This document shows positions 11,116-30,725 of a stretch of 56,324 nt of DNA, one piece after another (positions within the stretch are counted from its first letter, which is position 1; every line of letters begins with the position of its first letter). This stretch comes from Candidatus Nanopelagicales bacterium (lineage in GTDB: Bacteria > Actinomycetota > Actinomycetes > S36-B12): assembly GCA_044345075.1 (NCBI GenBank), contig JBIJBU010000001.1, forward strand, positions 1 to 56,324, read 5' to 3'. The notes under the pieces are model-generated. The model searched no databases. It saw only the letters and a program-made list of their open reading frames with translations, and had not been told where the DNA came from. Both the position numbers and the translations under genes were made by a program.

Positions 11116-11117
11116 GA

Positions 11118-14546: not shown

Positions 14547-14592
14547 CTGTGCTCTCATTCGTCGTTCGGAAAGTATGCTGATCGCAATTCTA

Positions 14593-14614
14593 GATCGTTC
14601 GGACCCTAACGGAA
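14593..14614. promoter_or_regulatory. Island operator motif, site 1 (GATCGTTCGG-AC-CCTAACGGAA)
   Basis: The left half matches the consensus perfectly and the right half matches 6/10. An extra half-site, cgTCGTTCGG, lies at 14561-14570. The site sits between the divergent starts at 14546 (-) and 14647 (+). Confidence 0.5.
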
Positions 14615-14646
14615 TACGGGTCCGGCCACCAGCCTTTGGAGGAATT

Positions 14647-15345
14647 GTGACCCGTCCGCGCATTGCGATCCTGGGCAGGTTCACCGAATCGGCGAGTGCC
14701 TTGCGCTACCGCGGTCTGGTCAGCTCCCGTGCCCTCCTGGAATACGTCTGGGCCGCCGGCGGCGACCCCATGACCTTGCTGCCTGGCAGTGACGCTGATG
14801 CTCTCGACTGGGAGGCCCGACTCCGGGGTTTTGAAGGAGTACTGCTCCCTGGTGGCGGTGATATCCGTCCGACTCGTTACGGCAAGGGTGACGATGATCC
14901 GACCCTGTACGACATGGACGACATGCAGGATGAGTCCGACTTCACACTTACCCGCTACTGCCTTGACCAGGGGATCCCGATGCTCGCGGTCTGCCGCGGC
15001 CTGCATGTGCTCAACGTGGTGACGGGCGGCACCCTTGTGGTGGACATGCCCGATCACCACCGTCATGTGGTGCACGACGTGACCTTGAGCGAGGGCGCTA
15101 CAGCCCTGGGAATCACGGATTCGCACGTGGCTGCGTCCTGCTACCACCATCAGGCGGTCGAGCGCGTGGGCGACGGGCTGACCGTCATCGGAATGTCAGC
15201 AGACGGCATCGTGGAGGCAGTCGTCGCCGATGCGAAGGCCTGGACAGTCGGCGTGCAATGGCACCCGGAGGACACCTACGCCAGCGATGAGCACCAGATG
15301 CAGCTGATGCGGCGCCTCGTGCAGGAGTCGTCGAGCGTTCTCTGA
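14647..15345 (+). CDS. Gamma-glutamyl-gamma-aminobutyrate hydrolase family protein (PuuD-like, peptidase C26 / class I GATase)
   Basis: The nucleophile motif is LAVCRGLHVLNV and the His motif is GVQWHPE. A GGAGG RBS precedes GTG 14647. I trimmed the ORF-track start at 14518 because it overlaps the divergent gene. Confidence 0.8.
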   Translation: MTRPRIAILGRFTESASALRYRGLVSSRALLEYVWAAGGDPMTLLPGSDADALDWEARLRGFEGVLLPGGGDIRPTRYGKGDDDPTLYDMDDMQDESDFTLTRYCLDQGIPMLAVCRGLHVLNVVTGGTLVVDMPDHHRHVVHDVTLSEGATALGITDSHVAASCYHHQAVERVGDGLTVIGMSADGIVEAVVADAKAWTVGVQWHPEDTYASDEHQMQLMRRLVQESSSVL

Positions 15346-15361
15346 CTAGGGCAAGGAACGG

Positions 15362-15853
15362 CTAATTCGCGGCTTGCGTGATGCGGCGCAGGATGTCGGC
15401 AGCCACGGGCTGCTCTGCCGAGGTGAGGTCGCGCACCACGTGGCGCTCAGCCTTGTTGAAGTCCGGGAAGAGCTTCTTCATCAGGCGCTTGCCCGAGGCA
15501 GTCAACTCGACCGTGACGAGGCGACCGTCCTTCTCGCCGCGCTTGCGCTCGACGAAGCCGCGGCCTTCGAGGGTGGTGAGCACCCCGCTCAGAGTGGCCT
15601 TGGAGACCCCGGCCTCGGAGGCGATCTCACGGGTCTCGGCGGTCTCCCAGATCCAGGCCACCCAGAGCACCACGAAGGCTGTCCAGGTGAGGTTGGACTT
15701 GGCCAGCACCGTGCGCTCCATGTGATTGCGGGCAGCATTGGCGGCGCGGAACAGGTTGGCGGTGACGGCCATGGCCTCGAAGTCGAGATCCATTCCGGCC
15801 AGGCGCGTAGCGACCTGGCTCTCGGTCTCGTCGAGAGTGTGCTGCCCGGGCAT
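15362..15853 (-). CDS. MarR family transcriptional regulator
   Basis: The product is 163 aa. The winged-helix region is EIASEAGVSKATLSGVLTTLEGRGFVERKRGEKDGRLVTVELTASG. Confidence 0.85.
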   Translation of the reverse strand: MPGQHTLDETESQVATRLAGMDLDFEAMAVTANLFRAANAARNHMERTVLAKSNLTWTAFVVLWVAWIWETAETREIASEAGVSKATLSGVLTTLEGRGFVERKRGEKDGRLVTVELTASGKRLMKKLFPDFNKAERHVVRDLTSAEQPVAADILRRITQAAN

Positions 15854-15867
15854 ATGGCCCCCATCTT

Positions 15868-15891
15868 GAGGTGAATCGTGAGGTGATTCGT
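15868..15891. repeat. Tandem 12-nt direct repeat GAGGTGAATCGT / GAGGTGATTCGT
   Basis: I read this directly from the sequence. It lies 15-38 nt upstream of the MarR start codon in the MarR/P450 divergent region and may be an operator. Confidence 0.5.
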
Positions 15892-15978
15892 GTGGCCTGT
15901 CGAGGCACGTGATCAGGAATTATTGCCCGAAGTCTGGCAACACTTCACATGAATCGCCACATCGGTCTACAGTACTCA

Positions 15979-16000
15979 GATAGTTCGGACCCGAACGATC
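15979..16000. promoter_or_regulatory. Island operator motif, site 2 (GATAGTTCGG-AC-CCGAACGATC)
   Basis: This is a 22-bp palindrome with one mismatch between its arms. It ends 18 nt upstream of the P450 ATG at 16019. Confidence 0.6.
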
Positions 16001-16018
16001 TTGAGTTCCGGAGGATTC

Positions 16019-17263
16019 ATGAGCACGCTGACCGATGTCACCCTGGCCGACCTGAGCCTCTTCGCTGATGGCGCCCCCTGGCAGGTCTTCGAAGATCTGC
16101 GCAAGAACTCGCCTGTCCACTGGAACGTGGAGGAGGCTCCGAACAACGGCTTCTGGTCGGTTACTCGCTACAACGACATCGTCGACGTGCTTCGCGACAC
16201 CGAGACCTACTCCAGCGAGATTGGCGCGGCCAATCTCGAGGAGCTCGACACTCGCCAGCTCGAAATCCGCAAGTCGATTCTGGAGACCGACGGCCCTCGT
16301 CACCGCGCCCTGCGCAAGATGCTGCAGCCGCAGTTCACCCCTCGCGCGCTCGCGGGCTACGAGACCTTCCTTCGCGGTATCACCGCCACGACCCTTGATC
16401 GTGCACTCGCCAAGGATCAGTTCGACTTCGTCGCCGACGTCGCCGCTGATTTCCCGATTCGCGTGCTGGCGCAGTTGCTCGACGTTCCCGAGTCCGACAT
16501 TCCTCAGCTGATCAAGTGGGGAAACAAGATGGTCGGAAATCAGGACCCCGAGCATGCCGATGTTCTCGCCGACAGCCCTGAAAGTGAGATGTACCGCGAT
16601 CTCCCGTTCCGTTCGCCGGCAGCTCTCGAGGTGTTCAAGTACGGGTACGAGCTCGCCTGGGGTCGCAAGGGTGGTAACGGAACCGACCTCGTGTCGGTGC
16701 TGATCAACACCGAGCCGTCTGACGGCATTGCTATCGATGCACGTGACTTCCGCAATTACTTCCTGCTGCTCGTCATCGCAGGCAACGAGACCACTCGCCA
16801 CACCATTACGCACACCATGAACAACCTGATGGCCAACCCCGATCAGCTTGCAATCCTTCGCGAGAAGCCCGAACTGATCCCGTGGGCCGTGGAGGAATTC
16901 CTGCGCATGGCTAGCCCGGTGCATCACTTCCGTCGTACCGCGCGGCACGAGACAGTGCTCAATGGCCAGGAGATCAAGGCCGGCGACAAGGTTGTCGTGT
17001 GGTTCGGCTCTGGCAATCGCGACGAGGAAATCTTCGCCGATCCCTACAAGTTCGACGTGCAGCGTCATCCGAATGAGCACATGTCCTTCGGCCGCGGTGG
17101 CCCGCATATGTGCCTGGGCAACTCACTCGCGCGCCTCGAGATCCAGATCATGTTCGAGGATCTTCTCTCTCGCGATGTTGATCTGATGCCCAATGGAAAA
17201 GCTGATTACGTGCTGAGCAACTTCGTGCACGGCTTCAAGCGCCTGCCGGTCAAGAAGGCGTAA
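16019..17263 (+). CDS. Cytochrome P450 monooxygenase
   Basis: The heme-binding loop is FGRGGPHMCLGNSLA, the I-helix is VIAGNETTR and the ExxR motif is EEFLR. A GGAGGA RBS precedes ATG 16019. Confidence 0.9.
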   Translation: MSTLTDVTLADLSLFADGAPWQVFEDLRKNSPVHWNVEEAPNNGFWSVTRYNDIVDVLRDTETYSSEIGAANLEELDTRQLEIRKSILETDGPRHRALRKMLQPQFTPRALAGYETFLRGITATTLDRALAKDQFDFVADVAADFPIRVLAQLLDVPESDIPQLIKWGNKMVGNQDPEHADVLADSPESEMYRDLPFRSPAALEVFKYGYELAWGRKGGNGTDLVSVLINTEPSDGIAIDARDFRNYFLLLVIAGNETTRHTITHTMNNLMANPDQLAILREKPELIPWAVEEFLRMASPVHHFRRTARHETVLNGQEIKAGDKVVVWFGSGNRDEEIFADPYKFDVQRHPNEHMSFGRGGPHMCLGNSLARLEIQIMFEDLLSRDVDLMPNGKADYVLSNFVHGFKRLPVKKA

Positions 17264-17280
17264 TTCATCCGAGCAATGAT

Positions 17281-17310
17281 GAAGGGCCGTCGACTACTCG
17301 CCGGCCCTTC
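17281..17310. terminator. Hairpin between convergent genes (probable bidirectional terminator)
   Basis: GAAGGGCCG and CGGCCCTTC form a perfect 9-bp stem around a 12-nt loop. The hairpin lies between the P450 stop (17263) and the GATase1 stop (17324). Confidence 0.55.
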
Positions 17311-17323
17311 GTCATCTCAGCTT

Positions 17324-18055
17324 TCAGTCGCGAACGAGATGCCCGAGTCCGGCCACGTTGGTGAGGAAGCTGTCGACGAGAGCATGGGCACGCTTCTGCG
17401 CCTTTGGCTCCTCGGCATATGAATAGGCAAGGAGAACATCGGGATCCTGACCGTCAGCGATGATCAAGTCGCGACCATCGCCCGGTGAGCTGTACCAGCC
17501 CTGCAGCATGTCGCCGGTGAGCTCGGGGTGGAACTGCAGTGCCAGGTTCTTGCGCAGAGTGAAGGCCTGCGACGCCCGAGAGGTGCGCGCGATCTCGGTG
17601 GCGTCCGGTGGCAGTACCCAGCGGTCATAGTGGAAGGAGAACCACGGCCCTTGGGGCACGAGTTCTTCGTCGTCGCTCCACACGCTTGTCCAGCCGATCT
17701 CGCAGTCTGGCGCGCGCCCGACGCCGCCGCCGTGCGCACGTGCCAGCAACTGACCACCGAAGCAGATGCCCATGACGGGCACACCAGCCGCATCGGCCTC
17801 GCGCAGCCATTCGACCTCGGGCAGGAGCCATGAGCCGATAGTGGAGTCATCCCAGGCCCCCCAGGGTGAGCCCATGGGGACGATGACATCGAAGGTGGTG
17901 GGGTTGGGGAACTCGTAGGTCACGACGCCGGGGGTGTTGTAGTGCGCGGCCTCGACGATGAGCTCTTCCACCACCTCAAAGCCGAGTTCGGCGAATCGCT
18001 CGGAGACGAGCCGGGGCGGGCTGAAGGCGTCGTGCTGCATGAATAGAACCCGCAT
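17324..18055 (-). CDS. Class I glutamine amidotransferase-like protein (GATase1), candidate gamma-glutamyl-amide hydrolase
   Basis: The nucleophile elbow is MGICFGGQLLA and the His motif is LQFHPE. I trimmed the start from 18391 to ATG 18055 (MRVLFMQHDAFSPP). Confidence 0.8.
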   Translation of the reverse strand: MRVLFMQHDAFSPPRLVSERFAELGFEVVEELIVEAAHYNTPGVVTYEFPNPTTFDVIVPMGSPWGAWDDSTIGSWLLPEVEWLREADAAGVPVMGICFGGQLLARAHGGGVGRAPDCEIGWTSVWSDDEELVPQGPWFSFHYDRWVLPPDATEIARTSRASQAFTLRKNLALQFHPELTGDMLQGWYSSPGDGRDLIIADGQDPDVLLAYSYAEEPKAQKRAHALVDSFLTNVAGLGHLVRD

Positions 18056-18111
18056 GCGGCAAATCCTCTCCCAAACTGGCCCCGCGGGAGGACGATTCGA
18101 CATAGGATTTC

Positions 18112-18137
18112 GAGATCGTTGGGGGCCGAACGATCTC
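18112..18137. promoter_or_regulatory. Island operator motif, site 3 (GAGATCGTTGGG-GG-CCGAACGATCTC)
   Basis: This is a 26-bp palindrome with 11/12 arm matches, the best copy. It lies between the divergent starts at 18055 (-) and 18188 (+). Confidence 0.65.
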
Positions 18138-18187
18138 TGACGATACTCACAAAGGCGAGAAACTCGCAACGGCGACAGGGGCAGCAC

Positions 18188-19537
18188 ATGCAGCAGGATT
18201 TGGCAGACGTCCGCAGGGACCTCGAGACCCAGGGCATCGACATCCTTCGGCTGCTGTGGCCCGATGTACTCGGCCTGCCGCGCTCGAAGGACATCACGGT
18301 GTCGCAGCTCGAGCGAGCGGCCGGTCACGGCCCCGCCTTCTGCCAGGCCACCTGGACAACCACGACTCGCGGTGACGTTCTCGACGGCCACGGCAGTCTT
18401 CAGGACGGACTCTCCGACATGGTGTCGCGTCTTGACGCGTCCACCATTCGCCCGATGCCGTGGGAGGAGGGCGTCGCCTACGCGATCGCTGACATTGACG
18501 AGCCGGACGGAACCCCGAATGCCATCGCGCCGCGGTCACTGCTGCGCCGCATCATCGAGGAGTACAAGGCACTCGGTCTGCTCCCGGTTGTTGGGCCCGA
18601 ACTCGAGTTCTATTTTGCGCACAAGCCGAGTGACAAGTGGGAGCGCATCCTCAACAAGACCGGCCGCGTGTACCAGACAGGTTCACTCGTCGATCCCGAC
18701 GGAACCTTCCTGTACCTGCTTCGCATGCTCGATCGCCTCAACATTGGCGCCTTTGCGGGCAACCACGAGTTCTGCCCGTCGCAGTACGAGATCAACCTGT
18801 GGCACGGCGATGCACTCGATGCTGCTGATCGCACCTTCTTGTTCAAGACCGCAATCAAGGACATCACGAATCGTCGCGGCATCATGAGCACCTTCATCGG
18901 CAAGCCGTGGGACGACGAGGGAGGCAGCGGTTTCCACCTGCACTTCTCAGTCACTGATGTCAACGGCCAGAACTTGATGGGCGAGCCCGACGGCGAGCTC
19001 TCGCTGATCTCACGGCGCATGATGGCCGGCATCCTCGAGCACGCACCTGCACTCGTGGCCTTCTGCAACCCGACCATTAACGCCTACAAGCGCCTCGGCC
19101 CCGACACCATGGCCCCTCATCGTTCGAGCTGGGGCTACGACAACCGCACCACGTTCATCCGCATCCCACCGGAGCGTGGTGCGGGCACCCGCCTCGAGGT
19201 GCGCATCGGCGACGGCGCTGCGAACCCGTATGTGATGATCGCGGTGATTCTCGCGGCGGCCCTCGATGGCCTTCGCCGTCAGCTCGACTGCCCGCCGCAC
19301 TCTGAGGGCTGGTCATACACCGACGAGAGCCGCCCGGTGCTGCCCATGACCCTCACCGATTCGCTCAATGCCATGCGTGCCGACACCTTCCTGGTCGACA
19401 TCCTGGGCGAGCCCTTCGTGCAGGCCTTCGAGACTCTCAAGCGCGACGAGGTCAAGCGTTACGAGGAGGCCGTCGAGGATCCCAGCACTCGTGAGGTGAC
19501 CGCGTGGGAGATCGCGGAGTACCTAGAGGACTATTAG
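18188..19537 (+). CDS. Glutamine synthetase family protein (GS-like gamma-glutamyl ligase), copy 1
   Basis: GS catalytic-domain motifs are GPELEFYF, NHEFCPSQYEIN, GSGFHLHFS, NAYKRL and RIPP...RLEVR. The N-terminal domain is short, as in PuuA/GlnA2-4-type ligases. I trimmed the start to ATG 18188. Confidence 0.85.
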   Translation: MQQDLADVRRDLETQGIDILRLLWPDVLGLPRSKDITVSQLERAAGHGPAFCQATWTTTTRGDVLDGHGSLQDGLSDMVSRLDASTIRPMPWEEGVAYAIADIDEPDGTPNAIAPRSLLRRIIEEYKALGLLPVVGPELEFYFAHKPSDKWERILNKTGRVYQTGSLVDPDGTFLYLLRMLDRLNIGAFAGNHEFCPSQYEINLWHGDALDAADRTFLFKTAIKDITNRRGIMSTFIGKPWDDEGGSGFHLHFSVTDVNGQNLMGEPDGELSLISRRMMAGILEHAPALVAFCNPTINAYKRLGPDTMAPHRSSWGYDNRTTFIRIPPERGAGTRLEVRIGDGAANPYVMIAVILAAALDGLRRQLDCPPHSEGWSYTDESRPVLPMTLTDSLNAMRADTFLVDILGEPFVQAFETLKRDEVKRYEEAVEDPSTREVTAWEIAEYLEDY

Positions 19538-22149: not shown

Positions 22150-22176
22150 AGTGCAGGAGCCTAGCAACTCCTCGGG

Positions 22177-22198: not shown

Positions 22199-22253
22199 GA
22201 TTTCCTGGATGGCCCATAGGGCACTTCCGTTCACTCGGCATTAGCCTTCGGGG

Positions 22254-22898
22254 GTGCCGCAGAAGCCCGCCCGCCAGCGCCTCAATCGCGAGGTGATCTG
22301 TGCTGCCGCCCTTGAGCTCGCGGCGGAGTCCGGCAGCCCCGATGTGAGCATGCGCGCCCTCGGCGAGCGTCTCGGTGTCGATGCTACGGCCGTGTACCGG
22401 CACTTCTCCGACAAGGACGACCTGATGCGTGCCGTCGGTGACCGAGCACTTGCCCCGGCGACCAGGGGATTCACCACCACTGACGATCCCGCCGACGATG
22501 TGCGCCGCATGTGCACCGGCATTCGCAAGGCCCTGCTCAAGAATCAGGTCGCGCTGATCATTACGTCGGCCGGCCCGACCCGAAACGCGAATGAGCTGCG
22601 CATCACCGAGGTCATGCTCGATGCCTTCCTGCGTGCGGGCATGGATCCTGACTCGGCGGCTCGGGCGTATCACGTGCTCATTGAGTACACCGTGGGATCT
22701 GCATCCCTCGATGCGCCGCTCTCGCGGAATGCGAAGGAGCGCAGGGCCACATACGACACCTGGCGTCGTGACTACCGAGCATTACCTGCGGATGAGTACC
22801 CGGCGATCCATGAACTCGTCGGTCATTTGTACCCGAGTAGTGACGACGTATTCGCCACCGGTCTCAGTGCGCTCATCGCACAACTGATGCCCGCTTAG
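22254..22898 (+). CDS. TetR family transcriptional regulator
   Basis: The N-terminal HTH is REVICAAALELAAESGSPDVSMRALGERLGVDATAVYRHFSDKDDL. The start codon is GTG. Confidence 0.85.
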   Translation: MPQKPARQRLNREVICAAALELAAESGSPDVSMRALGERLGVDATAVYRHFSDKDDLMRAVGDRALAPATRGFTTTDDPADDVRRMCTGIRKALLKNQVALIITSAGPTRNANELRITEVMLDAFLRAGMDPDSAARAYHVLIEYTVGSASLDAPLSRNAKERRATYDTWRRDYRALPADEYPAIHELVGHLYPSSDDVFATGLSALIAQLMPA

Positions 22899-22904: not shown

Positions 22905-24176
22905 TTAGTACACGCGGGCGTACTCGCCCTGCTCCCAATCGGTAACCGCCGACTCCCAGCGCTTCCATTCGCTGCGCTTAAGCCCGACGTAGACCTCGAC
23001 GAGATCCTTCTCGAGGTACGACTGCAACTTGGTATCGGCTTCGAGAGCATCGAGTGACTCAGCGAGTGAATGCGGAGTATGGCGATCTGTGTTCGGTGCC
23101 TCATCGGCGTCACCGAGCTGCGGGTCAGGAAGTGCAAGCTTCTCGTCGACACCATGCATGCCGGCGGCGAATAGTGCAGCGCTCAGCAGATGCGGTGTTG
23201 CACTGCCATCTGCCATGCGGTGCTCGACGCGTGTGGTGGCACCGCGCTGTCCGGGCACGCGCACGGTGGCGATGCGATTGTCGAGACCCCAGTTCGCCCA
23301 GTAGCCGCTGAGCATGCCGGGGGTCAGGCGCTTGTAGGAGTTCACGGTAGGTGCGGCGAAGGCGGTGAGTGCCTCGTGATGAGCAAGGAGTCCTGCGATG
23401 AAATGACGCGCGAGGTCGGTGATACCCAGAGGATCATCGAGGCTTGCGAACATATTCTCGCCCGCGGCATTCGCGAGGCTCATGTTCACGTGCATGCCGT
23501 TACCGACGGCATCGGCGAACGGACGTGCCATGAAGGTTGCGTCGACGCCGCGCTCGCGTGCTGTTAGGCGCACGAGCTCGCGGAAGAGCAGTGCGCAGTC
23601 GGCTGACTCGAGCGCAGGCTGGTAGTGCAGTGCAGCCTCAACCTGGCTCGGTGTGAATTCGGCGTTGACACCCTCGACCTGAAGGCGGGCCATCTCGGCG
23701 AGCTCGACCACTGCCTCGAGAGTGCCGCTCGGATCAGCGCCGGCACCAATGCCATAGACGCGATGATCAGGAACAGGCATCTTCACGAGCGGCTTCAGGC
23801 TCTCGAGCAGGAAGAACTCCATCTCGAAGCCGGTCATCGGCGTGTAACCGCGCTGGCCCCACTGATCGCAGATCATGCGCAGCTGGCGGCGTCCGTCGAG
23901 GGGAAGCTCTTCGCCATTGGTGCGGTAAAGATTCGAGAGTGCGATCTGGCGGCCGTTGATCCACGGGCGCAAGGTGGCGGAATCGATGCGCGCTTCCATG
24001 TCGGGGAAGCCCGCACTGGTGGAGTAGGTCGGCGTATCGAGGAACTCGAGATCGAGCCCCTGCACCATCACCGTGATGGCGTAGTGAGTTGGATGATCGA
24101 CGCGGTGAGTGGGAACTGTCTTGCCGTGAGTGAGCCCGAGGAGGTCGGGAAAGATCACGTCGATCTGGTCAGCCAC
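22905..24176 (-). CDS. Glutamine synthetase family protein (GS-like ligase), copy 2
   Basis: Motifs are GFEMEFFL, NAEFTPSQVEAAL, GNGMHVNMSL, NSYKRL and RVP...TRVEHR. I set the start to GTG 24176, 1 nt after the upstream TGA stop (24178-24180). The ORF-track start is 24200. Confidence 0.85.
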   Translation of the reverse strand: MADQIDVIFPDLLGLTHGKTVPTHRVDHPTHYAITVMVQGLDLEFLDTPTYSTSAGFPDMEARIDSATLRPWINGRQIALSNLYRTNGEELPLDGRRQLRMICDQWGQRGYTPMTGFEMEFFLLESLKPLVKMPVPDHRVYGIGAGADPSGTLEAVVELAEMARLQVEGVNAEFTPSQVEAALHYQPALESADCALLFRELVRLTARERGVDATFMARPFADAVGNGMHVNMSLANAAGENMFASLDDPLGITDLARHFIAGLLAHHEALTAFAAPTVNSYKRLTPGMLSGYWANWGLDNRIATVRVPGQRGATTRVEHRMADGSATPHLLSAALFAAGMHGVDEKLALPDPQLGDADEAPNTDRHTPHSLAESLDALEADTKLQSYLEKDLVEVYVGLKRSEWKRWESAVTDWEQGEYARVY

Positions 24177-24177
24177 G

Positions 24178-25239
24178 TCAGTTCGCCTCTCCGGCAGCAA
24201 CGCCGACCAGTGTTCCCTTGTCGACTACCTGATGATCATCGAGCCATACGCTGTGACCGCGCATCGGAAGATCGAAGTGACCGGCGGTGAAGCGTTGTGC
24301 ATTCTCATTCGCTCCGGTGCTGAACAGGAAGTTGCCGGCGAATGCTCGCGCCTCGGTGCCGTTGATGTCTGAGCGGTCGTAAAGCTCGAGGAAATCCCAG
24401 CGCGCACCGGTATTCATTCCGAACCCGACGTGGCTGACGGCGTAGGCGTCTTCGTCGAAGGCCTCAAGGTACGAGCGCATGAGTTCAGCCTGGTAGCCGC
24501 TGCCCTTGATCTCGACGACGTAGTCATTCTCGATGCGCATCGTGATGGGTTCAGTGATGTAGTGCTTGAAGGTCAGGTTCATGTCACCAGGTGCGAGAAC
24601 GACGGTGCCATTGACGGTGCCCTTCGCCGGGAAGGCGAGTACGAGACCACCGGGCCAGTGAGCGATCGAACCCGGTCCGGAGATAACACCGGTAGAACCT
24701 GCGGTGAATGCGCCAGCGAGCTCAACAGTGAGATCGGTGCCGAACTCACTCGTGGCGCGCATCGTCTTCGACCGCTTCATGAGTTCATGTGCGGCACTCA
24801 CGCGTTCCGCCATCACCGGATCGTGACGCATGCGTTCGTAGACCTCGGGGTGCTCAAGGCTGACCATCAAGATGCTGGTGCCCGAGGAGAGAATCGCACC
24901 GAGTTCCTTTGCATGAAGCATTCCCTCGACAGTGCAGTCGACAACGAACGGCACAGAGGACAGCGAACTGATTGCGCCGGCGAGACCGTTGAGTGCCACT
25001 GATGCGCCGGTCGAGCGGATCGCAACCGGGCCGGGGTTCGCCGGCGTGCGCATGACAACCTCGAACGGCTTTGCCCCAAGTGACTCGAGCGCGAGAATCG
25101 ATGTCTCGACGAGATCGGCGCGACTGGATGACTCGGAGAGCACGATGCACTCCATGCCCTCGGTCACTCCGTTGACCTTGAAATGCGCGGCGAAGGACTC
25201 GATCCAGCGCCATTCGGCGACAGGCGGTCGGACGGTCAT
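24178..25239 (-). CDS. NicX-like protein (2,5-dihydroxypyridine 5,6-dioxygenase / aminopeptidase-M29-like fold)
   Basis: The C-terminal half reads YAVSHVGFGMN...ARAFAGNFLFSTGANE...GHFDLPMRGHSVWLDD. It tracks what I recall of Pseudomonas putida NicX (SHIGWG, ARAFYGNFLFSTGPN, HLDIPLRNCDIYLDD), including the presumed Fe(II) ligand positions. Confidence 0.65.
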   Translation of the reverse strand: MTVRPPVAEWRWIESFAAHFKVNGVTEGMECIVLSESSSRADLVETSILALESLGAKPFEVVMRTPANPGPVAIRSTGASVALNGLAGAISSLSSVPFVVDCTVEGMLHAKELGAILSSGTSILMVSLEHPEVYERMRHDPVMAERVSAAHELMKRSKTMRATSEFGTDLTVELAGAFTAGSTGVISGPGSIAHWPGGLVLAFPAKGTVNGTVVLAPGDMNLTFKHYITEPITMRIENDYVVEIKGSGYQAELMRSYLEAFDEDAYAVSHVGFGMNTGARWDFLELYDRSDINGTEARAFAGNFLFSTGANENAQRFTAGHFDLPMRGHSVWLDDHQVVDKGTLVGVAAGEAN

Positions 25240-26030
25240 GTGGTCTCCCAGTGCTGAAGGATTGCGCGGTTCACGGCGTCAGGTGCCTCGAGGTTGAGCA
25301 GGTGCCCGGCGCCGGGAATCGTGACAAGTGTGGCACTGGGCATCAGATCAACGATGGCCTTCGAGTAGGAAGGCGGGGTTTCATCATCATCCTCGCCGAT
25401 CAGCACGAGGGTGGGCACGGTGATCTCAGGCAGGATCGCCCGCGAATCGTGTGAGGGCAGGATCGAGAGACTAGTGAGCATGCCGGCCATAGGAATGCGT
25501 GCCATCGCCTCACAGGCCTCGGGCACGACGTGCTGAGCCTCGGGCCCGGCGAGGGAGCTCAGGATCACGGGCGCCGCCGCGGCCACCGTGCCGAAGGTTT
25601 CCAGGCCCTTCAGTCGGTTATTGCGCCACTCGTCAGGGTCGGTACCGTCGAGTCCGAAAGCCGGGCTGGTGCAGATCAGGGTGAGTGAGCGCACCAACTT
25701 AGGGTGCGCATGAGTCATGTACTGGGCGATCATGCCGCCGAATGACGTGCCGACGAGGTCGACGGGGGCATCCGGGGATACCCGACGAATCAGTGCGGCC
25801 GCTCGATCGGCGTACCCCGCGAAGCTCTGCACCTCGACCGGCGCCGATTCGCCGTAACCGGGCGCATCCCAGGCCACGACCCGCTCTGCCTCGGCAAGCA
25901 CGGGCAGGTTCGGGCCCCAGGCGATGCGTGAGCCGCCGAGCCCATGAAGAAGGACGGCCACGCGGGGCCCGTCGCCTGCCTCACGCCAGGCATTCGGGCT
26001 CTCGTCGACATCGGTGATCGTGATCGGCAT
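25236..26030 (-). CDS. Alpha/beta-fold hydrolase (NicD-like deformylase/amidase candidate)
   Basis: The oxyanion region is HGLGGS, the nucleophile elbow is VGTSFGG and the C-terminal His is GAGHL. Its stop overlaps the NicX-like start (ATGA-type overlap at 25239-25236). Confidence 0.8.
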   Translation of the reverse strand: MPITITDVDESPNAWREAGDGPRVAVLLHGLGGSRIAWGPNLPVLAEAERVVAWDAPGYGESAPVEVQSFAGYADRAAALIRRVSPDAPVDLVGTSFGGMIAQYMTHAHPKLVRSLTLICTSPAFGLDGTDPDEWRNNRLKGLETFGTVAAAAPVILSSLAGPEAQHVVPEACEAMARIPMAGMLTSLSILPSHDSRAILPEITVPTLVLIGEDDDETPPSYSKAIVDLMPSATLVTIPGAGHLLNLEAPDAVNRAILQHWETT

Positions 26031-26060
26031 GTTCGAAAACTAGGGCCGCATATCAATTTA

Positions 26061-26075
26061 GTCAACAGTGTTGAC
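26061..26075. promoter_or_regulatory. Perfect palindrome GTCAAC-AGT-GTTGAC overlapping a TTGACA -35-like hexamer
   Basis: I read this directly in the AT-rich 75-bp divergent region between starts 26030 (-) and 26106 (+). TTGACA lies at 26071-26076. Confidence 0.55.
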
Positions 26076-26105
26076 ATTTCATTTTCGTTCCCTATTCTCA
26101 AGCAC

Positions 26106-27368
26106 ATGACTCCTCCGAATGCCGTTGCCGCACATGAAGGTTCCTCCGTTGCCACGGGCTCGACCGGCGGCAAGACCGGCCCGATCGGTACCCCTGACTC
26201 CACGATGACCCGCGACGAGATGGTTGCTGTTATTCGCGAGCTGGGCCCGACCTTCGACGCGCGAGCTGTCGATACCGATCTGAACGCCGAGTTCCCCTGG
26301 GGCAACTTCAATGACCTTCGTGAGCGTGGCTTCTTGGCCCTATGCGTGCCGAAGGAGTACGGCGGCATGGGTGCGAGCTACGCCGACTACATCCGCGTCT
26401 CCGAGGAAATCGGTCGTCACTGCGGCTCGACCGGCCTCACGTTCAATATGCACAATGCCACGATGCTGTGGGCTGGCCAGGTGGCTGACTTGCTCGACAT
26501 GAGCCCGGAGGAGCGCGAGACCCACGAGCGTCGGCGCGCCGAAATGTTCCGCGGGGTGGTCGAGAACGGTGAGATTCATTCGCAGCCGTTTAGCGAGGGC
26601 CTGAACCCCGGTGCACTCGCGGGCATCATGACCCGAGCGACCCCGGTCGAGGGCGGCTACCTCGTCACCGGTCGAAAGATCTTCGCCTCGCTATCCGGCG
26701 CAGCCGATCGGTACAACGTCACCTGCCAGGTCGAGGGCGAGGAATTCTTGCGCCTGCTCTCGGTTCGCTCGAAGAGCGAAGGCGTGGAGATCGTGGACGA
26801 CTGGGATCCCCTGGGCATGCGCGGCACCGTCTCGCGCACTCTGCTGCTCAAGGACGTCTTCGTCCCGGCCGATGACGAGATCATGCCCGGCGGCATGTAC
26901 GACCAGGCCGCCAAGCGCTTCCCGTATCTATTCATGTCGCTGGCGCCCTCATACCTCGGCCTGACCAAGGGAATCCTCGACTTCACCCGCAGCTACTTGC
27001 GCGGCGAGGTTGCCGGAGCAGCCAAGGGCACCGGCCGTCGCGATAACCCAATTAAGCAGTACGGGTGGGCAGAAATGAACATCAAGTACGAGCAGTCGCG
27101 CGCGATGCTTTTCAGCGTGGTCGACTCGGCCAGCCTCGACCCCGTTGAGGAGCAGATGGTGACCGCCTGGGCAGCCGTTTACACGGTCATGGAGCACGCG
27201 AACGCCGTCGCCGCCCTTGCTGTTCGGGTGTGCGGTGGCCAGGCAATGCTCAAGCATCTGCCGCTTGAGCGGATGTACCGAGACTCCCGCCTGGGATCCA
27301 CGATGTTGCCCTGGAGCGCCGAGGTCGCCCTGGAGCGCATCGGGAAATCAGGCCTGTACGACGCATAA
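26106..27368 (+). CDS. Acyl-CoA dehydrogenase-fold flavoprotein (dehydrogenase or ACAD-type monooxygenase)
   Basis: The ACAD layout is visible (GFLALCVPKEYGGMGASY, ...DPLGMRGT...). A Gly/Ser/Thr-rich N-terminal extension of about 35 aa precedes the fold. I trimmed the start to ATG 26106. Confidence 0.75.
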   Translation: MTPPNAVAAHEGSSVATGSTGGKTGPIGTPDSTMTRDEMVAVIRELGPTFDARAVDTDLNAEFPWGNFNDLRERGFLALCVPKEYGGMGASYADYIRVSEEIGRHCGSTGLTFNMHNATMLWAGQVADLLDMSPEERETHERRRAEMFRGVVENGEIHSQPFSEGLNPGALAGIMTRATPVEGGYLVTGRKIFASLSGAADRYNVTCQVEGEEFLRLLSVRSKSEGVEIVDDWDPLGMRGTVSRTLLLKDVFVPADDEIMPGGMYDQAAKRFPYLFMSLAPSYLGLTKGILDFTRSYLRGEVAGAAKGTGRRDNPIKQYGWAEMNIKYEQSRAMLFSVVDSASLDPVEEQMVTAWAAVYTVMEHANAVAALAVRVCGGQAMLKHLPLERMYRDSRLGSTMLPWSAEVALERIGKSGLYDA

Positions 27369-27400
27369 ACCTGAAGGAAGACGCGGAATCGTTACCGCGC

Positions 27401-27415
27401 CACTTTCCGAAAGTG
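27401..27415. promoter_or_regulatory. Palindrome CACTTTC-C-GAAAGTG
   Basis: I read this directly in the 129-bp spacer between the ACAD-fold gene and the permease gene. The 1-nt centre argues for a protein-binding site rather than a stable RNA hairpin. Confidence 0.35.
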
Positions 27416-27450
27416 CTTGCGCAGCGCCCCTGTTTAATCAAGTATTCGTA

Positions 27451-27472
27451 AGTCGTTCGGTTCCGTACAAGC
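27451..27472. promoter_or_regulatory. Island operator motif, site 5 (AGTCGTTCGG-TT-CCGTACAAGC)
   Basis: The left half matches 8/10 and the right half 7/10 to the consensus. It lies 26 nt upstream of the permease ATG at 27498. Confidence 0.45.
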
Positions 27473-27497
27473 TCGACCACGTCCCTCTGGAGGAGAC

Positions 27498-29039
27498 ATG
27501 TCGCAAAGGGAAAACCTCCCACAGTCAGATCAGACGCTTGGAGCCGGTGACCCGGAAACCAAGTCGACCTCGCTGAAGAAGGGCACGCTTGGCCTCCTCG
27601 GCGTCATCTTCTTCGTCATTGCTGCGGCCGCACCCGTCGCCGGCATGACGGGTGCCTTCCCGGTCGCCATCGGCATTGGAGACGGTGCGGGAGCCGCGGG
27701 CATGTTCGTCGCGGTGGGCATCGTGCTGCTGCTGTTCTCAGTCGGCTACGCGACCATGTCGCACTACGTCACCAACACCGGAGCGTTCTTTGCCTATGTC
27801 GGTCGTGGCCTGGGCATCGTCCCCGGTGTCGGCTCAGCCTTCGTATCGACCCTCGCCTACCTCACAGTCCAGTGGGGCGTTCTCGGCTTCCTGGCCGGCC
27901 AGCTCGACTTCTACATGCAGGCCAAGTTCAGCTTTGACATCGACTGGTGGATCTACGCCATCATCTTGATCGTCATCGTCTGGGTTCTCTCGGCCCTGTC
28001 GGTCGATATCGGCGCCAAGGTGCTCGGCATCTTCCTGATCATCGAGATTATCGCCCTGCTGGTGCTCGCCATCTCGATCTTGTTCCAGGGTGGCGCTGAC
28101 GGCATCGACCTGGGTGCCTCCTTCAACCCGTCGAATATCTTCGCGGGCGGTCTCACCGGTGGTGCGGGTATTGCCTTCGCCTTCGCCTTGGCCTCCTTCA
28201 TTGGCTTCGAGGCCACGGCGATCTACGGCGAGGAGTCCAAGGACCCCAAGCGCACCGTTCCTCGCGCCACTTACATCTCGGTCGTGTTCATCACGGTGCT
28301 CTTCGGCATCGTGGGCCTGGCCCTGATCAGCGGCCTCGGCGCCGAGGGTGTCTCCGACAAGGTCTTCGAAGTCACCTCAGTTGACGGTGTGCCTCTGGCT
28401 GATCCGTCGGCAGTCCTCTTCAGCCTATCGACCAGCTTCGTCGGTTCCTGGCTTACCGAGCTGTTCGCCATCATCGTGATGACCTCGCTGTTCGCCGCAA
28501 TGCTCGCCTTCCAGAACAGCGCCTCGCGCTACCTGTTCTCGATGGGTCGCGCCGGCGTGCTGTCGAAGAAGCTCGACAAGGTCAACAGCCGCCAGGCGCC
28601 GATGGTTGCCACCACCGTGGTGTCGATCCTCGCGGTGATCCTGGTGATCTTGGCCGTGATCTTCGCCTGGGATCCGATCTACCAGATCTTCTACTGGTTC
28701 GGTGCGGTCGCGGTTATCGCGATCGTCCTGACCGAGATCCTGGTCAGCCTGTCGGTCATCGTGTACTTCCGCCGCACCAAGGAAGACACTCGGGTGTGGA
28801 ACACGCTGATCGCTCCAATCCTGTCGATCATCGGCCTGGTTATCGGCGAGTACATGCTCATGAGCCGCTTCAACCTCTTCTCGGGCACTGCCTCGGGCGA
28901 GGGCGGCCCGTGGGAGATGAACACCACCGGTTGGATTCTGGTTCTCCTACCCTTCGGGATGCTCGTCGTCGGCCTCATCGTCGGCGCTGCGCGCAAGAAC
29001 AAGGAGAACTACGACGCAGTTCGCAACTTCGTCAGCTAG
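27498..29039 (+). CDS. APC superfamily amino acid/amine permease
   Basis: The 513-aa product has about 12 hydrophobic segments and the Gly-rich early helices typical of APC transporters (AAAPVAGMTGAFPVAIG). Confidence 0.8.
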   Translation: MSQRENLPQSDQTLGAGDPETKSTSLKKGTLGLLGVIFFVIAAAAPVAGMTGAFPVAIGIGDGAGAAGMFVAVGIVLLLFSVGYATMSHYVTNTGAFFAYVGRGLGIVPGVGSAFVSTLAYLTVQWGVLGFLAGQLDFYMQAKFSFDIDWWIYAIILIVIVWVLSALSVDIGAKVLGIFLIIEIIALLVLAISILFQGGADGIDLGASFNPSNIFAGGLTGGAGIAFAFALASFIGFEATAIYGEESKDPKRTVPRATYISVVFITVLFGIVGLALISGLGAEGVSDKVFEVTSVDGVPLADPSAVLFSLSTSFVGSWLTELFAIIVMTSLFAAMLAFQNSASRYLFSMGRAGVLSKKLDKVNSRQAPMVATTVVSILAVILVILAVIFAWDPIYQIFYWFGAVAVIAIVLTEILVSLSVIVYFRRTKEDTRVWNTLIAPILSIIGLVIGEYMLMSRFNLFSGTASGEGGPWEMNTTGWILVLLPFGMLVVGLIVGAARKNKENYDAVRNFVS

Positions 29040-29048
29040 TCCTGCGAA

Positions 29049-29076
29049 GGGGGATGGGCCGATTGGTCCATCCCTC
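29049..29076 (+). terminator. Intrinsic terminator-like hairpin after the permease gene
   Basis: GGGGGATGGGCC-GATT-GGTCCATCCCTC forms a 12-bp stem (two G-U pairs) with a 4-nt loop. It is followed by the T-rich tract TTCTCATTTCC. Confidence 0.6.
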
Positions 29077-29097
29077 TTCTCATTTCCGAAAACAGTG

Positions 29098-29111
29098 ATT
29101 CACTGGTGAAT
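29098..29111. promoter_or_regulatory. Perfect palindrome ATTCAC-TG-GTGAAT
   Basis: I read this directly, 16 nt upstream of the CoA-ligase ATG at 29127. It shares the GTGA(A/T)T core with the 15868-15891 tandem repeat. Confidence 0.45.
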
Positions 29112-29126
29112 GGGGCGGGAGGAACC

Positions 29127-30725
29127 ATGCGTAGTAGCCATATCGATACTTTTGCCGCGGACAACCTGCCTCCCGAGAACGAATGGCCTGATCTCATCGG
29201 CCTCGACTCCTTCAGCTACCCCGAACGGCTCAACGCTGCCGTCGAACTGCTTGAGGGAACGATCGCCCGTCATGGCGCGCAGCGCACCGCGATTGCGGGG
29301 GCCAATACTTCGTGGACTTACGGCGAGGTTCTCGATCTTGTCTCACGTTGCGCCAATGTGCTGATCGACGCGGACGTGCGTCCTGGTAATCGGGTGCTGC
29401 TTCGCGGTCCGAATAATCCCTGGCTCGCGATCTCCTGGCTGGCCGTTCTCCGTGTCGGTGGCGTAGTAGTCACCACGATGCCAATGCTGCGAGCGGGCGA
29501 ACTCGAGAAGGTCGTCGACATTGCGCAGGTGCAATTCGCAATCGTCGATCATCGCTACCTCGAAGAGTGGGACGCCGTCATCAACTTCCGCGGCACCACT
29601 ATTGCCTACGGAGGCGACTCCCACGAAGACCTGACCGCGCTGTGCGCGAAGGCACTGCCGGCGAGTCATGCATGCGATACCCATGCGGAGGATGTCGCAC
29701 TGCTTGCCTTCACATCCGGCACTACCGGCGGCCCAAAGTCGACGATGCACTTCCACCGCGACATCCTGCTGATCGCCGACACGTACTCCGCACACATCCT
29801 GGCTCCCACACCCGCGGACGTCTTCGCCGGTTCGCCGCCCATCGCCTTCACCTTCGGCCTTGGCGGACTGGTCATTTTCCCGCTGCGGGCAGGTGCCTCC
29901 ACCGTGCTATTGGAAGCTGCGTCACCGCCGGTGCTGCTGGAGGAGATCCTGCGCCACGGCATCACGTGCCTGTTCACTGCTCCCACCGCGTATCGCGCGA
30001 TGCTGGCGAATATGCCCGATGGCGGGCTACCGTCGCTGCGACGCTGTATCTCTGCAGGTGAGCACCTGCCCGAGGCGACGTGGTTGGCTTGGCGCGATGC
30101 CACTGGCCTGGAGCTCATCGACGGCATCGGGGCAACAGAGATGCTTCACATTTTCATCTCCGCACGCGTCGATGACATGGTGCCGGGTGCGACAGGCAAG
30201 CCCGTGCCTGGTTTCATCGCGCAGGTGGTCGACGAGAATCTTGAGCCGGTGCCCAACGGAACTCCGGGCCGCCTCGCGGTGAAAGGCCCTCTGGGTTGCC
30301 GCTACCTTGCCGACAAGCGCCAAGGTGTCTACGTGCAAGGCGGCTGGAACGTCACCGGTGACATCTTCGTGATCGACGAGGCTGGTCACTTCCATTACGT
30401 CTCGCGCTCCGACGACATGATCGTGTCGAGCGGCTACAACATCGCCGCACCCGAGGTCGAGAACGCACTCATGCTGCACCCGAGCGTCGCCGAGACCGCA
30501 GTAGTCGGCGCACCGGATGCGGATCGGGGCGTCATCGTGAAGGCCTTCGTCGTGCCCGCCGCAGGATTCGAGCCCGGGACTGCTCTCGCGAAGGAACTCC
30601 AGGATCACGTGAAGGCGACTATCGCCCCGTACAAGTACCCGCGCTCGATTGAATTCGTTGCCGAGTTGCCCCGTACCGCCACCGGAAAGCTGCAGCGCTT
30701 TCGGCTTAAGCAGGGCGATATCTGA
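29127..30725 (+). CDS. AMP-dependent aryl-CoA ligase (benzoate/2-aminobenzoate-CoA ligase-like)
   Basis: The AMP motif is FTSGTTGGPKS. The N-terminus, HIDTFAADNLPPENEWPDL...YPERLNAAVELLE, is typical of the benzoate/anthranilate-CoA ligase subgroup. The C-terminus is PRTATGKLQRF. A GGGAGGA RBS precedes ATG 29127. Confidence 0.8.
   Translation: MRSSHIDTFAADNLPPENEWPDLIGLDSFSYPERLNAAVELLEGTIARHGAQRTAIAGANTSWTYGEVLDLVSRCANVLIDADVRPGNRVLLRGPNNPWLAISWLAVLRVGGVVVTTMPMLRAGELEKVVDIAQVQFAIVDHRYLEEWDAVINFRGTTIAYGGDSHEDLTALCAKALPASHACDTHAEDVALLAFTSGTTGGPKSTMHFHRDILLIADTYSAHILAPTPADVFAGSPPIAFTFGLGGLVIFPLRAGASTVLLEAASPPVLLEEILRHGITCLFTAPTAYRAMLANMPDGGLPSLRRCISAGEHLPEATWLAWRDATGLELIDGIGATEMLHIFISARVDDMVPGATGKPVPGFIAQVVDENLEPVPNGTPGRLAVKGPLGCRYLADKRQGVYVQGGWNVTGDIFVIDEAGHFHYVSRSDDMIVSSGYNIAAPEVENALMLHPSVAETAVVGAPDADRGVIVKAFVVPAAGFEPGTALAKELQDHVKATIAPYKYPRSIEFVAELPRTATGKLQRFRLKQGDI

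Follow-up and report, generated by a model that had tools for sequence, protein, structure and literature searches.

In the pathways that degrade nicotinate, picolinate and 5-hydroxypicolinate, NicX opens 2,5-dihydroxypyridine (2,5-DHP) to N-formylmaleamate, from which NicD removes formate. In the structure of NicX, the Fe(II) ligands are His265, Ser302, His318 and Asp320, and the substrate is held by a His105-Glu177-His189 network in which Glu177 adjoins N1 and O1 of 2,5-DHP, this residue and His189 being assigned to the O1/N1 edge of the substrate; no activity beyond 2,5-DHP was reported (PMC7910607). Among systems for arylamines, the skt cluster of Rhodococcus ruber R1 (skatole/aniline) opens an N-heterocycle by means of a two-component flavin monooxygenase and its reductase (bioRxiv 10.1101/2024.12.29.630347), and NpaA1, for 1-naphthylamine, is a further case of gamma-glutamyl-dependent arylamine oxidation (PMC11335346). 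Here we describe a NicX-like gene carried by a 56,324-nt stretch of DNA, hereafter the window, from a Candidatus Nanopelagicales bacterium (assembly GCA_044345075.1, contig JBIJBU010000001.1; G+C ~62%). In this locus, genes for an alpha/beta-fold hydrolase, the NicX-like protein and a glutamine synthetase (GS)-like ligase face genes for an acyl-CoA dehydrogenase (ACAD)-fold protein, an APC permease and an aryl-CoA ligase. We put at about an even chance that a new NicX subfamily opens here a ring other than 2,5-DHP (benzo-fused, N-substituted or acylamino), the nitrogen being passed on as a gamma-glutamyl amide. This would be an undescribed route with at least 559 matches in species-representative genomes, its carriers being mainly aquatic Actinomycetota, with Acidobacteriota and rhizobial plasmids in addition.

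The six genes were checked by open reading frame (ORF) listing and by Pfam and NCBIfam scans (Table 1), and the assignments agree with the labels given in a preliminary description of this DNA. That description had also presented the three minus-strand genes as translationally coupled and facing the other three, which proved correct: the hydrolase stop and the NicX-like start overlap as ATGA at 25239-25236, and the NicX-like TGA (24180-24178) is followed, after one base, by the GTG of the GS-like gene at 24176. An alternative TTG start at 24200 would overlap the NicX-like gene, so the GS-like gene is coupled to it with either start. On the opposite strand, the ACAD-fold gene most likely starts at the ATG at 26106, just 3' of a promoter-like site, because the longer ORF beginning at 25944 overlaps the divergent hydrolase gene. 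The "Gly/Ser-rich extension" ascribed to its product comes down to about 33 poorly conserved residues, the first 20 of which are modelled with a predicted local distance difference test (pLDDT) value below 50. The locus is best read as a breakdown module, widely conserved in freshwater, marine and soil bacteria and without earlier description.

The NicX-like dioxygenase and the missing nic genes

Compared with NicX from Pseudomonas putida (7CN3), the NicX-like protein yields a phmmer E value of 2e-51 over its whole length (residues 6-346). Its AlphaFold (AF2) model (pLDDT 82.9) matches NicX structures 7CN3 and 7CUP in Foldseek with TM scores of 0.85-0.87 (E 1.7e-37, rmsd 2.3-2.6 Å), against 0.53-0.62 for M29 aminopeptidases. 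In Pfam, the only match is to Peptidase_M29, whose score (20.9) lies under the 27-bit cut-off; homologues of the protein bear PF26233:NicX. Database labels are divided, RefSeq calling these proteins "peptidase M29 / leucyl aminopeptidase" and JGI calling homologues 2,5-dihydroxypyridine 5,6-dioxygenase. The comparison with characterised NicX suggested in the preliminary description thus groups the protein with NicX and not with M29 aminopeptidases. An identity of the AmpS, AmpT or PepS type was rejected on the grounds of the sub-cut-off Pfam score, a TM score of about 0.55 and the presence of the NicX metal site.

This site was examined in an alignment comprising the window protein, P. putida NicX, the Cupriavidus and Pannonibacter NicX proteins from nicE-nicD-nicX-nicF clusters, and members of the window clade. 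The motifs previously put forward as the iron site are present (SHVGFG, FLFSTGAN and GHFDLP) and align with His265, Ser302 and His318/Asp320, respectively. All four ligands are conserved in the window protein and in every aligned clade member, as are His105, His189 and Arg293. The substrate pocket shows a different pattern. In the window protein, Glu177 is replaced by Ser, Val175 by Ala and Glu308 by Asn; throughout the clade, position 308 holds Asn, Val or Thr and is followed by a two-residue deletion, and "EG" is inserted ahead of Leu104-His105. A sister clade from Alphaproteobacteria has Thr, Gly and Tyr at positions 177, 175 and 308. In contrast, the three canonical NicX proteins keep both Glu177 and Glu308. 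Hence the His105-Glu177-His189 network is incomplete in the window protein, Glu177 being the missing member.

Altogether, the alignment indicates that the window protein is a NicX-family dioxygenase of a distinct subfamily, one feature defining 2,5-DHP recognition being missing. Since Glu177, which binds the N1-H/C2=O edge, is lost, the substrate is probably not plain 2,5-DHP; since the pocket residues that hold this edge are replaced by small ones, the substrate is probably bulkier on its N1/C2 side, as a benzo-fused, N-substituted or 2-(acyl)amino ring would be. A family-wide search (E <= 1e-30, 50% identity clustering) returned 146 clusters, and most full-length representatives keep the His/Ser/His/Asp iron site. 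Position 177 varied widely among 72 aligned sequences (Glu in 12, Gln in 25, Ser in 9, Thr in 4, other residues in the rest). With Glu177 found in only about 12 of the 72, much of the family may have further, uncharacterised specificities.

The gene context departs from that of nic loci as well. Canonical clusters are arranged nicE-nicD-nicX-nicF, and the association with NicD, NicF and NicE is not seen in the window: queries with NicE, NicF, NicD and NicC from two canonical clusters gave no reportable tblastn match there. De novo ORF clustering of 84 related loci contained no recurrent isochorismatase or Asp/Glu-racemase family. The absence of NicF and NicE noted in the preliminary description thus extends beyond the window, NicF being missing from nearly all related loci and a NicE-like gene occurring in two only (L054 and L068). 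The two nearby genes that had been put forward as substitutes for NicE were ruled out. The MDMPI gene recurs in 1 of 80 loci, and the FAH gene belongs to a meta-cleavage set with HpaD-, HpaE- and HpaG-like members.

Conservation, partner enzymes and regulation

Relatives were collected by running two clade-specific peptide patterns against a species-representative genome collection; more than 600 stretches were obtained, 559 of them confirmed relatives, and 80 loci were taken for comparison. Window proteins were matched to these loci by tblastn, and proximity to the NicX-like gene was counted only where flanks were complete (57 loci at 3 kb, 36 at 10 kb). The ACAD-fold gene lies within 3 kb in 54 of 57 loci and within 10 kb in 34 of 36; the corresponding figures are 45/57 and 34/36 for the hydrolase gene, 26/57 and 28/36 for the GS-like gene. 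Within 10 kb, P450 genes occur in 19 of 36 loci, GATase and MppR/ADC genes in 13 each, and LigB genes in 10. The triad of ACAD-fold, NicX-like and hydrolase genes is therefore the most conserved unit (34/36, 36/36 and 34/36), and 8 of the 36 loci have it with no GS-like gene within 10 kb. Directly 3' of the NicX-like gene, a GS-like gene is found in 33 of 80 loci, plus four in which a flavin reductase gene intervenes. The exact order hydrolase, NicX-like, GS-like is present in 18 loci (four more with the reductase inserted); 11 have the order ACAD, NicX-like, GS-like. The gene set is thus conserved as a unit in many genomes and several phyla.

Most carriers are Actinomycetota, with a few Acidobacteriota. 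The former include Ilumatobacteraceae and other Acidimicrobiia, "Ca. Poriferisocius" sponge symbionts, Nocardioides, Streptosporangium, Flexivirga and Ornithinimicrobium; also among them are freshwater metagenome-assembled genomes (MAGs) of Nanopelagicales type (94-95% identity). A search of plasmid proteins added modules of 45-47% identity from the Alphaproteobacteria Ensifer adhaerens, Sinorhizobium sp. RAC02, Shinella sp. PSBB067 and Aminobacter aminovorans (strain KCTC 2477), in the order NicX-like, ACAD, (SRPBCC-)hydrolase, TetR, GS-like, flavin reductase, APC permease. These four are cultured, as are Flexivirga caeni BO-16, Kineosporia sp. A_224 and Streptosporangium sp. NPDC051022 among the Actinomycetota. 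Identities between window and Ensifer proteins are 46% (NicX-like), 41% (ACAD) and 37% (APC, E 8e-82), and these three proteins look orthologous across phyla. The GS-like partner belongs to two lineages that share 27% identity, one of which is 66-76% identical between Alphaproteobacteria and some Actinomycetota. Compact versions occur in Kineosporia (TetR, GS, Fre, NicX and ABH facing ACAD) and in Flexivirga caeni, where seven genes are arranged as TetR-ACAD facing ABH-NicX-Fre-GS-C26. A C26 gamma-glutamyl hydrolase gene directly follows the ligase gene in three loci (Flexivirga, Ornithinimicrobium and L092).

Two loci carry near-identical modules of the Actinomycetota type under odd taxon labels, namely L010 (JBEIHR010000004.1, a "Rubricoccaceae" MAG, Bacteroidota/Rhodothermota) and L005 (CAYFLO010000300.1, a "Bifidobacteriaceae" MAG); binning errors or recent transfer may be the reason. 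A 158-aa protein encoded after the reductase gene in L081-L083 was discarded as a module component, having no family match and being confined to those contigs.

The hydrolase possesses a GTSFG nucleophile elbow, and its Asp (GEDDD) and His (GAGHL) align with those of NicD and other hydrolases. It had been called NicD-like, which holds for the fold and the Ser-Asp-His triad but not for orthology: BLASTP against NicD of the two canonical clusters gave E values of 5e-6 (over 62 aa) and 0.008, compared with 1e-22 to 1e-27 (32-33% identity) against the hydrolase domain of the Ensifer and Aminobacter modules. NicD was therefore rejected at the orthologue level. The closest curated family, PcaD (enol-lactonase), is matched under its cut-off. 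In the alphaproteobacterial modules (L084-L087, ~14369-14880), an SRPBCC (Polyketide_cyc2) domain is fused to the N terminus of the hydrolase, and L092 has a separate Polyketide_cyc2 gene (11911-12531) and a DUF4166 gene after its TetR gene; the domain is not conserved outside these modules.

For the ACAD-fold protein, the best Protein Data Bank (PDB) matches are 5Z8T, labelled "Flavin-containing monooxygenase" in Foldseek, and 5GJ7 (E 9e-40); no paper citing either entry was found. Next come DszC, TdsC (including indole complexes) and nitrososynthases. A Flavin_Reduct gene lies within the module in at least 13 loci. Because the closest structures are those of monooxygenases and other loci have a flavin reductase within the module, the protein is best read as the oxygenase half of a two-component (group-D) flavin monooxygenase. 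The preliminary description was thus right about the fold, and the probable role is that of hydroxylase of the route rather than CoA-ester dehydrogenase. The same two observations make an acyl-CoA dehydrogenase partnering the CoA ligase unlikely. An alignment aimed at the catalytic Glu had as its reference the second ACAD of the window, which itself is without the classic YEGT motif.

Pfam detects the Gln-synt_C catalytic domain alone in the ligase of the module (GS2). Its scores reach no curated cut-off for GS, PuuA, type III or GlnII proteins (GlnA 235.1 against 429, type III 242.7 against 469.6, PuuA-type 248 against 650), and all three GS-like proteins of the window fall far under the GlnA cut-off (235-246 bits). 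GS2 resembles ordinary GS at least as closely as it does the GS-like ligases with PDB structures. These scores mark it as a GS-like, putative gamma-glutamyl ligase and not a bona fide GlnA. The APC permease, whose gene is present in 17 loci, is presumed to take up the substrate. Among PDB entries, the CoA ligase is closest to anthranilate-CoA ligase 4WV3 (E 9e-87), with benzoate-CoA ligases scoring lower. Homologues of 51-88% identity adjoin the module in ten loci, including that of Shinella, whose enzyme is 55% identical to the one in the window. Activation by CoA had been put forward as one option for the route; the gene is indeed present, but as a minority accessory (about 11 of 87 loci).

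The promoter-like site at the ACAD gene consists of TTGACA, a 16-nt spacer and TATTCT, 10 of 12 positions matching. A palindrome of the form GTCAACA-N-TGTTGAC, GTCAACAGTGTTGAC (26061-26075), overlaps the -35-like TTGACA. It is found once in the window, against 0.09 occurrences expected by chance, and recurs identically in the ACAD/hydrolase intergenic region of 11 loci from several orders, reaching Kineosporia and Ilumatobacteraceae. Most of the Actinomycetota loci have a TetR gene flanking the module, as do all four modules from Alphaproteobacteria. The palindrome GTCAACANTGTTGAC is thus probably the operator for the regulator of the module, TetR being the candidate; conserved palindrome and recurrent TetR gene together support a single regulated unit.

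Proposed route and alternative readings

The whole scheme that we favour, tentatively and with somewhat less than even confidence, is one in which the ring is hydroxylated, cleaved and hydrolysed and the GS-like ligase then handles the amine nitrogen, in a module that regulates itself. The ACAD-fold flavin monooxygenase, supplied by a reductase encoded in or outside the cluster, would hydroxylate an N-containing aromatic ring to give a 5-hydroxy-2-pyridone-like HO-C=CH-N motif. The NicX-subfamily Fe(II) dioxygenase would cleave the C-C bond of this motif to yield a carboxylate and an N-formyl (or N-acyl) product, and the serine hydrolase would take off the formyl or acyl group. Nitrogen would leave as an amine, not as maleamate; ATP-dependent gamma-glutamylation by the GS-like ligase, with a C26/GATase gamma-glutamyl hydrolase, would take the place of the NicF amidase and NicE isomerase. 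We infer the order of the reactions, the nature of the substrate and the action of the ligase after ring opening. A concrete version, proposed with low confidence, has an indoxyl- or hydroxyquinolone-like ring converted to an N-formyl arylamine such as N-formylanthranilate; the arylamine would be glutamylated or CoA-activated and then handed to the P450 and LigB (or gentisate-type) genes.

Ring opening ahead of glutamylation is favoured by the loci in which the triad stands without a nearby GS-like gene, by the ligase being the one non-orthologous, replaceable part, and by the resemblance of the P450/GATase and second-dioxygenase sets to arylamine processing after opening of a heterocycle. Two non-orthologous ligase lineages, set against orthologous NicX-like, ACAD and APC proteins, fit a peripheral, downstream role for the ligase. 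A precedent exists in the skatole cluster of Rhodococcus ruber, where a two-component flavin monooxygenase occurs with a GS-like, GAT-like and oxygenase arylamine system (bioRxiv 10.1101/2024.12.29.630347). In Streptosporangium, a kynureninase gene lies two genes (~2 kb) upstream of the module, past an amino-acid permease gene; this and the anthranilate-CoA ligase match point loosely to anthranilate-like products.

Several points weigh against this scheme. The kynureninase adjacency is confined to that one genome, and no flavin reductase was found in the window. Conservation of the APC permease points to a substrate that is a charged amine or an amino acid, not a neutral heterocycle such as indole. 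The argument from the pocket depends on a single crystal structure and on an alignment in which identity is 33-35%. The accessory genes, with three ligase and three hydrolase genes in the island, could be separate amine pathways that merely share it. Finally, compact modules such as that of Flexivirga caeni hold a ligase and a gamma-glutamyl hydrolase, their sole oxygenases being the flavin monooxygenase and the NicX-like enzyme; these are easier to explain if glutamylation comes first.

The last point leads to the main rival, which we consider unlikely, if less so than the others. Here, an aromatic or heteroaromatic amine (aminobenzoate, aminophenol or tyramine-like) would enter via the APC permease and be gamma-glutamylated by the GS-like ligase. 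The gamma-glutamyl amide would be hydroxylated by the flavin monooxygenase at the position para to the nitrogen, the NicX-like enzyme would cleave the resulting N-acyl-p-aminophenol-like ring in the manner of a hydroquinone, and the hydrolase and C26 enzyme would release formate or acid, glutamate and ammonia. Its logic is that of the aniline (AtdA1/A2) and 4-aminobenzoate gamma-glutamyl routes with other oxygenases. SadA and SadB are examples of ACAD-fold monooxygenases that act on anilines and 4-aminophenol. Besides the compact seven-gene modules and the conservation of the permease, the changes of Glu177 to Ser/Thr and of Val175 to Ala/Gly would open space for an N-acyl chain para to the hydroxyl, and pairs of GS-like and GAT-like proteins are standard for arylamines (bioRxiv 10.1101/2024.12.29.630347, PMC11335346 and PMC4539516). 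However, a ligase that initiates the pathway is hard to reconcile with triads that have no GS-like gene within 10 kb in 8 of 36 loci, or with orthologous oxygenases whose ligase partner was drawn from two unrelated GS-like lineages. GS2 shows no particular affinity to structurally characterised GS-like ligases, carbocyclic ring cleavage is not known for NicX-family enzymes, and the second aromatic ring-cleavage pathway frequent inside the cluster is left unexplained.

It is improbable that the module serves an ordinary 2,5-DHP pathway for hydroxypyridines, nicotinate or picolinate. The monooxygenase would then produce 2,5-DHP and the NicX-like enzyme and hydrolase would convert it to maleamate, the GS-like protein merely assimilating ammonia or being unrelated, with amidase and isomerase unlinked or non-orthologous. 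Retention of every iron ligand and of His105 and His189, the JGI annotation of homologues, the nitrilase-superfamily hydrolase found in four Acidimicrobiales loci and in Aminobacter, and the NicE-like gene beside the module in two loci all agree with this reading. Against it stand the clade-wide loss of Glu177 and Glu308, which the NicX proteins of true nic clusters keep, a hydrolase that is no NicD orthologue, and the lack of NicF-like and NicE-like genes in the window and in nearly all of the 80-plus loci. Moreover, the window's GS-like proteins score far under the GlnA cut-off, and the maleate isomerase of L054 and L068 is accounted for by a gentisate-type operon that does without NicX.

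Opening of an N-alkyl ring (N-methyl-5-hydroxy-2-pyridone from trigonelline, homarine or related N-alkyl pyridinium compounds), with the primary alkylamine freed by ring opening and hydrolysis and trapped by the GS-like ligase as in the gamma-glutamylmethylamide and isopropylamine routes, would suit a small residue in place of Glu177 beside N1, the best non-GS ligase match of GS2 in the PDB (glutamate-methylamine ligase 9QUR, E 4.5e-45), the PurU gene 4 nt after GS1, a CYP125/124-like P450 of an alkyl hydroxylase family paired with GATase-like hydrolases as in Ipu logic, and an APC permease fit for a zwitterionic betaine, but it is very improbable since the module encodes neither a molybdenum hydroxylase nor a Rieske-type enzyme that could perform the first ring hydroxylation of a pyridinium carboxylate, genes of the N-methylglutamate pathway are not seen, the aryl-CoA ligase and the ring-cleavage sets of LigB and gentisate type stay unexplained, and PurU recurs only in close relatives.

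Neighbouring genes and relation to known systems

Table 1. Features of the module and of its surroundings in the 56,324-nt window.
Feature	Position	Strand	Basis or remark
GS-like ATP-dependent gamma-glutamyl ligase, putative (GS2)	22905..24176 (ORF 22905-24200)	-	Gln-synt_C E 3e-90; start GTG 24176 or TTG 24200
NicX-subfamily Fe(II) ring-cleavage dioxygenase, predicted, 353 aa	24178..25239	-	phmmer, AF2 model, conserved ligands
Alpha/beta-fold serine hydrolase, 264 aa	25236..26030	-	Pfam Abhydrolase_1/6; NCBIfam PcaD/PcaDC best; all sub-cut-off
ACAD-fold group-D flavin-dependent monooxygenase, probable oxygenase component	26106..27368 (ORF 25944-27368)	+	PDB neighbours
APC-superfamily permease	27498..29039	+	Pfam AA_permease_2
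Aryl-CoA ligase, benzoate/anthranilate type (AMP-binding)	29106..30725	+	NCBIfam benz_CoA_lig 347.6, cut-off 375
TetR-family regulator, candidate repressor of the module	22254..22898	+	Pfam TetR_N, TetR_C_1
MppR/ADC-family enzyme	21340-22224	-	NCBIfam MppR E 1.5e-56
F420-type LLM oxidoreductase	20396-21328	-	F420 LLM TIGR03619, over cut-off
Divergent promoter region with palindrome GTCAACAGTGTTGAC	26061..26098	+	10/12 promoter-like positions and palindrome
Accessory set	9940..19537	mixed	ferredoxin reductase, HpaG-like FAH, HpaD-like LigB dioxygenase, HpaE-like aldehyde dehydrogenase (ALDH), Peptidase_C26, MarR, CYP125-like P450, GATase-like hydrolase, GS1
Ferredoxin reductase	9940-11115	-	
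ALDH ORF	13086-14684		5' end over-extended
Peptidase_C26 gamma-glutamyl hydrolase (PuuD-like)	14518-15345	+	
P450a, CYP125/124-like	16001-17263	+	E 1.7e-106 to reconstructed CYP125 ancestor 8VXI
GATase/C26 gamma-glutamyl hydrolase	17324-18391		
GS1, GS-like ligase	18119-19537		
PurU, formyltetrahydrofolate deformylase	19541-20386	+	over curated cut-off
GS3, GS-like ligase	33731-35074		
GATase/C26 gamma-glutamyl hydrolase	35075-35776		
Second module	31397-38063		P450b, Zn-dependent alcohol dehydrogenase (ADH), GS3, GATase-b, family III CoA-transferase, ACAD2
Orn/Lys/Arg-type PLP decarboxylase, then polar amino-acid ABC transporter	2362-6537		
Polyphosphate kinase beside CYTH-CHAD protein	44462-48099		

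The module is embedded in a wider island (Table 1) containing three GS-like ligase genes, three gamma-glutamyl hydrolase genes, none of which adjoins GS2, and two P450 genes. The ALDH ORF is over-extended at its 5' end, where it overlaps the C26 gene; its true start probably lies further downstream. Enzymes of the CYP125/124 family perform terminal alkyl hydroxylation. The ferredoxin reductase gene lies 5 kb from P450a, and no ferredoxin gene was identified. The proximity of PurU to GS1 hints that one-carbon traffic is tied to one gamma-glutamyl route.

TetR and MppR/ADC genes follow the GS-like gene in ten loci, joined in eight by the LLM gene, and the MppR/ADC enzyme and LLM oxidoreductase are probable downstream steps. 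Loci of Acidimicrobiia and "Ca. Poriferisocius" have hydrolase-GS on one side and ACAD-NicX on the other of interleaved P450, LigB, ADC and GATase genes. Four further loci from Acidimicrobiales (L054, L056, L067 and L068, ~2.7-7.8 kb) and that of Aminobacter (L085, 8245-11865) have the core module facing an operon that replaces the LigB set and encodes a CYP125-like P450, a nitrilase-superfamily hydrolase, a cupin resembling gentisate/5-aminosalicylate 1,2-dioxygenase, and FAH. In L054 and L068 this gentisate-type operon includes a maleate isomerase with 63-70% identity to NicE. A P450, a GATase and a dioxygenase pathway, either of LigB or of gentisate/5-aminosalicylate type, are added in about half of the loci, so that a second aromatic ring-cleavage route, variable in type, often accompanies the constant core.

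In eight loci from "Ca. Poriferisocius" and other Acidimicrobiales, genes for P450b, ADH, GS3 and ACAD2 reappear as a group some 6 kb away from the NicX-like gene, with a branched-chain-type ABC transporter in between. A CHAD gene abuts the minimal module in L081-L083, probably by coincidence.

NicX has so far been a one-substrate enzyme family. A second specificity is likely here, given a remodelled pocket and fixed partner genes in organisms ranging from freshwater plankton and sponge symbionts to soil rhizobia. If true, this would extend the NicX substrate range and link cleavage of an N-heterocycle to gamma-glutamylation for the first time. As the carriers include very abundant aquatic Actinomycetota, the compound degraded is probably a common natural N-containing aromatic, and its identification would close a gap in what is understood of dissolved organic nitrogen cycling. 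The NicX reading would also correct the widespread M29 peptidase label. Searches of the full-text literature found no paper that connects a NicX homologue to gamma-glutamylation, to aminophenols, to a GS-like ligase or to an ACAD-fold monooxygenase, in keeping with the earlier view that the gene combination has no published description.

Of the known systems, M29 aminopeptidases (AmpS, AmpT, PepS) share with the NicX-like protein a distantly related fold; they differ in that the latter has the NicX metal site and a context of catabolic oxygenases, not of peptidase functions. In the Puu (putrescine) and Ipu (isopropylamine) pathways, a GS-like ligase is likewise succeeded by an oxidation step on the gamma-glutamyl amide and by a hydrolase of PuuD/C26 or GATase type. 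The island, with its three ligase/hydrolase pairs, has a P450 and ferredoxin reductase in common with Ipu. However, both pathways act on aliphatic amines without a ring-cleavage dioxygenase, and neither is linked to a NicX homologue. Arylamine gamma-glutamyl systems (aniline AtdA1-A5/TdnQ; skt) come closer, having a GS-like ligase and a GATase/C26 hydrolase near oxygenase and ring-cleavage genes. Unlike the aniline systems (AtdA1-A5, TdnQTA1A2B), the module has no two-subunit Rieske dioxygenase, and no Rieske oxygenase is found among the recurrent families of the 84 loci; its oxygenases are the predicted group-D flavin monooxygenase, the NicX-family dioxygenase and, in many loci, a CYP125-like P450. 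GS2 is also short (~425 aa) and not specifically related to GS-like ligases of solved structure.

With the NicC-NicX-NicD-NicF-NicE pathway (P. putida KT2440 and its Hpo/Nfo, Pic and Hpa variants), the module shares a NicX-family Fe(II) dioxygenase with identical metal ligands, a preceding ring hydroxylase, an alpha/beta-fold hydrolase in the same operon, and the predicted sequence of hydroxylation, cleavage next to the ring nitrogen and deformylation. In contrast to the single-component FAD hydroxylase of nic pathways, that of the module is a predicted two-component ACAD-fold flavin monooxygenase, and neither it nor the hydrolase is orthologous to NicC or NicD. The module pocket is without Glu177 and Glu308, NicF is missing and NicE occurs in two loci only; in their place come a GS-like ligase, an APC permease, a TetR regulator and, often, a gamma-glutamyl hydrolase. 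By analogy, then, the system would work like a lower nicotinate pathway fused to a gamma-glutamyl amine pathway.

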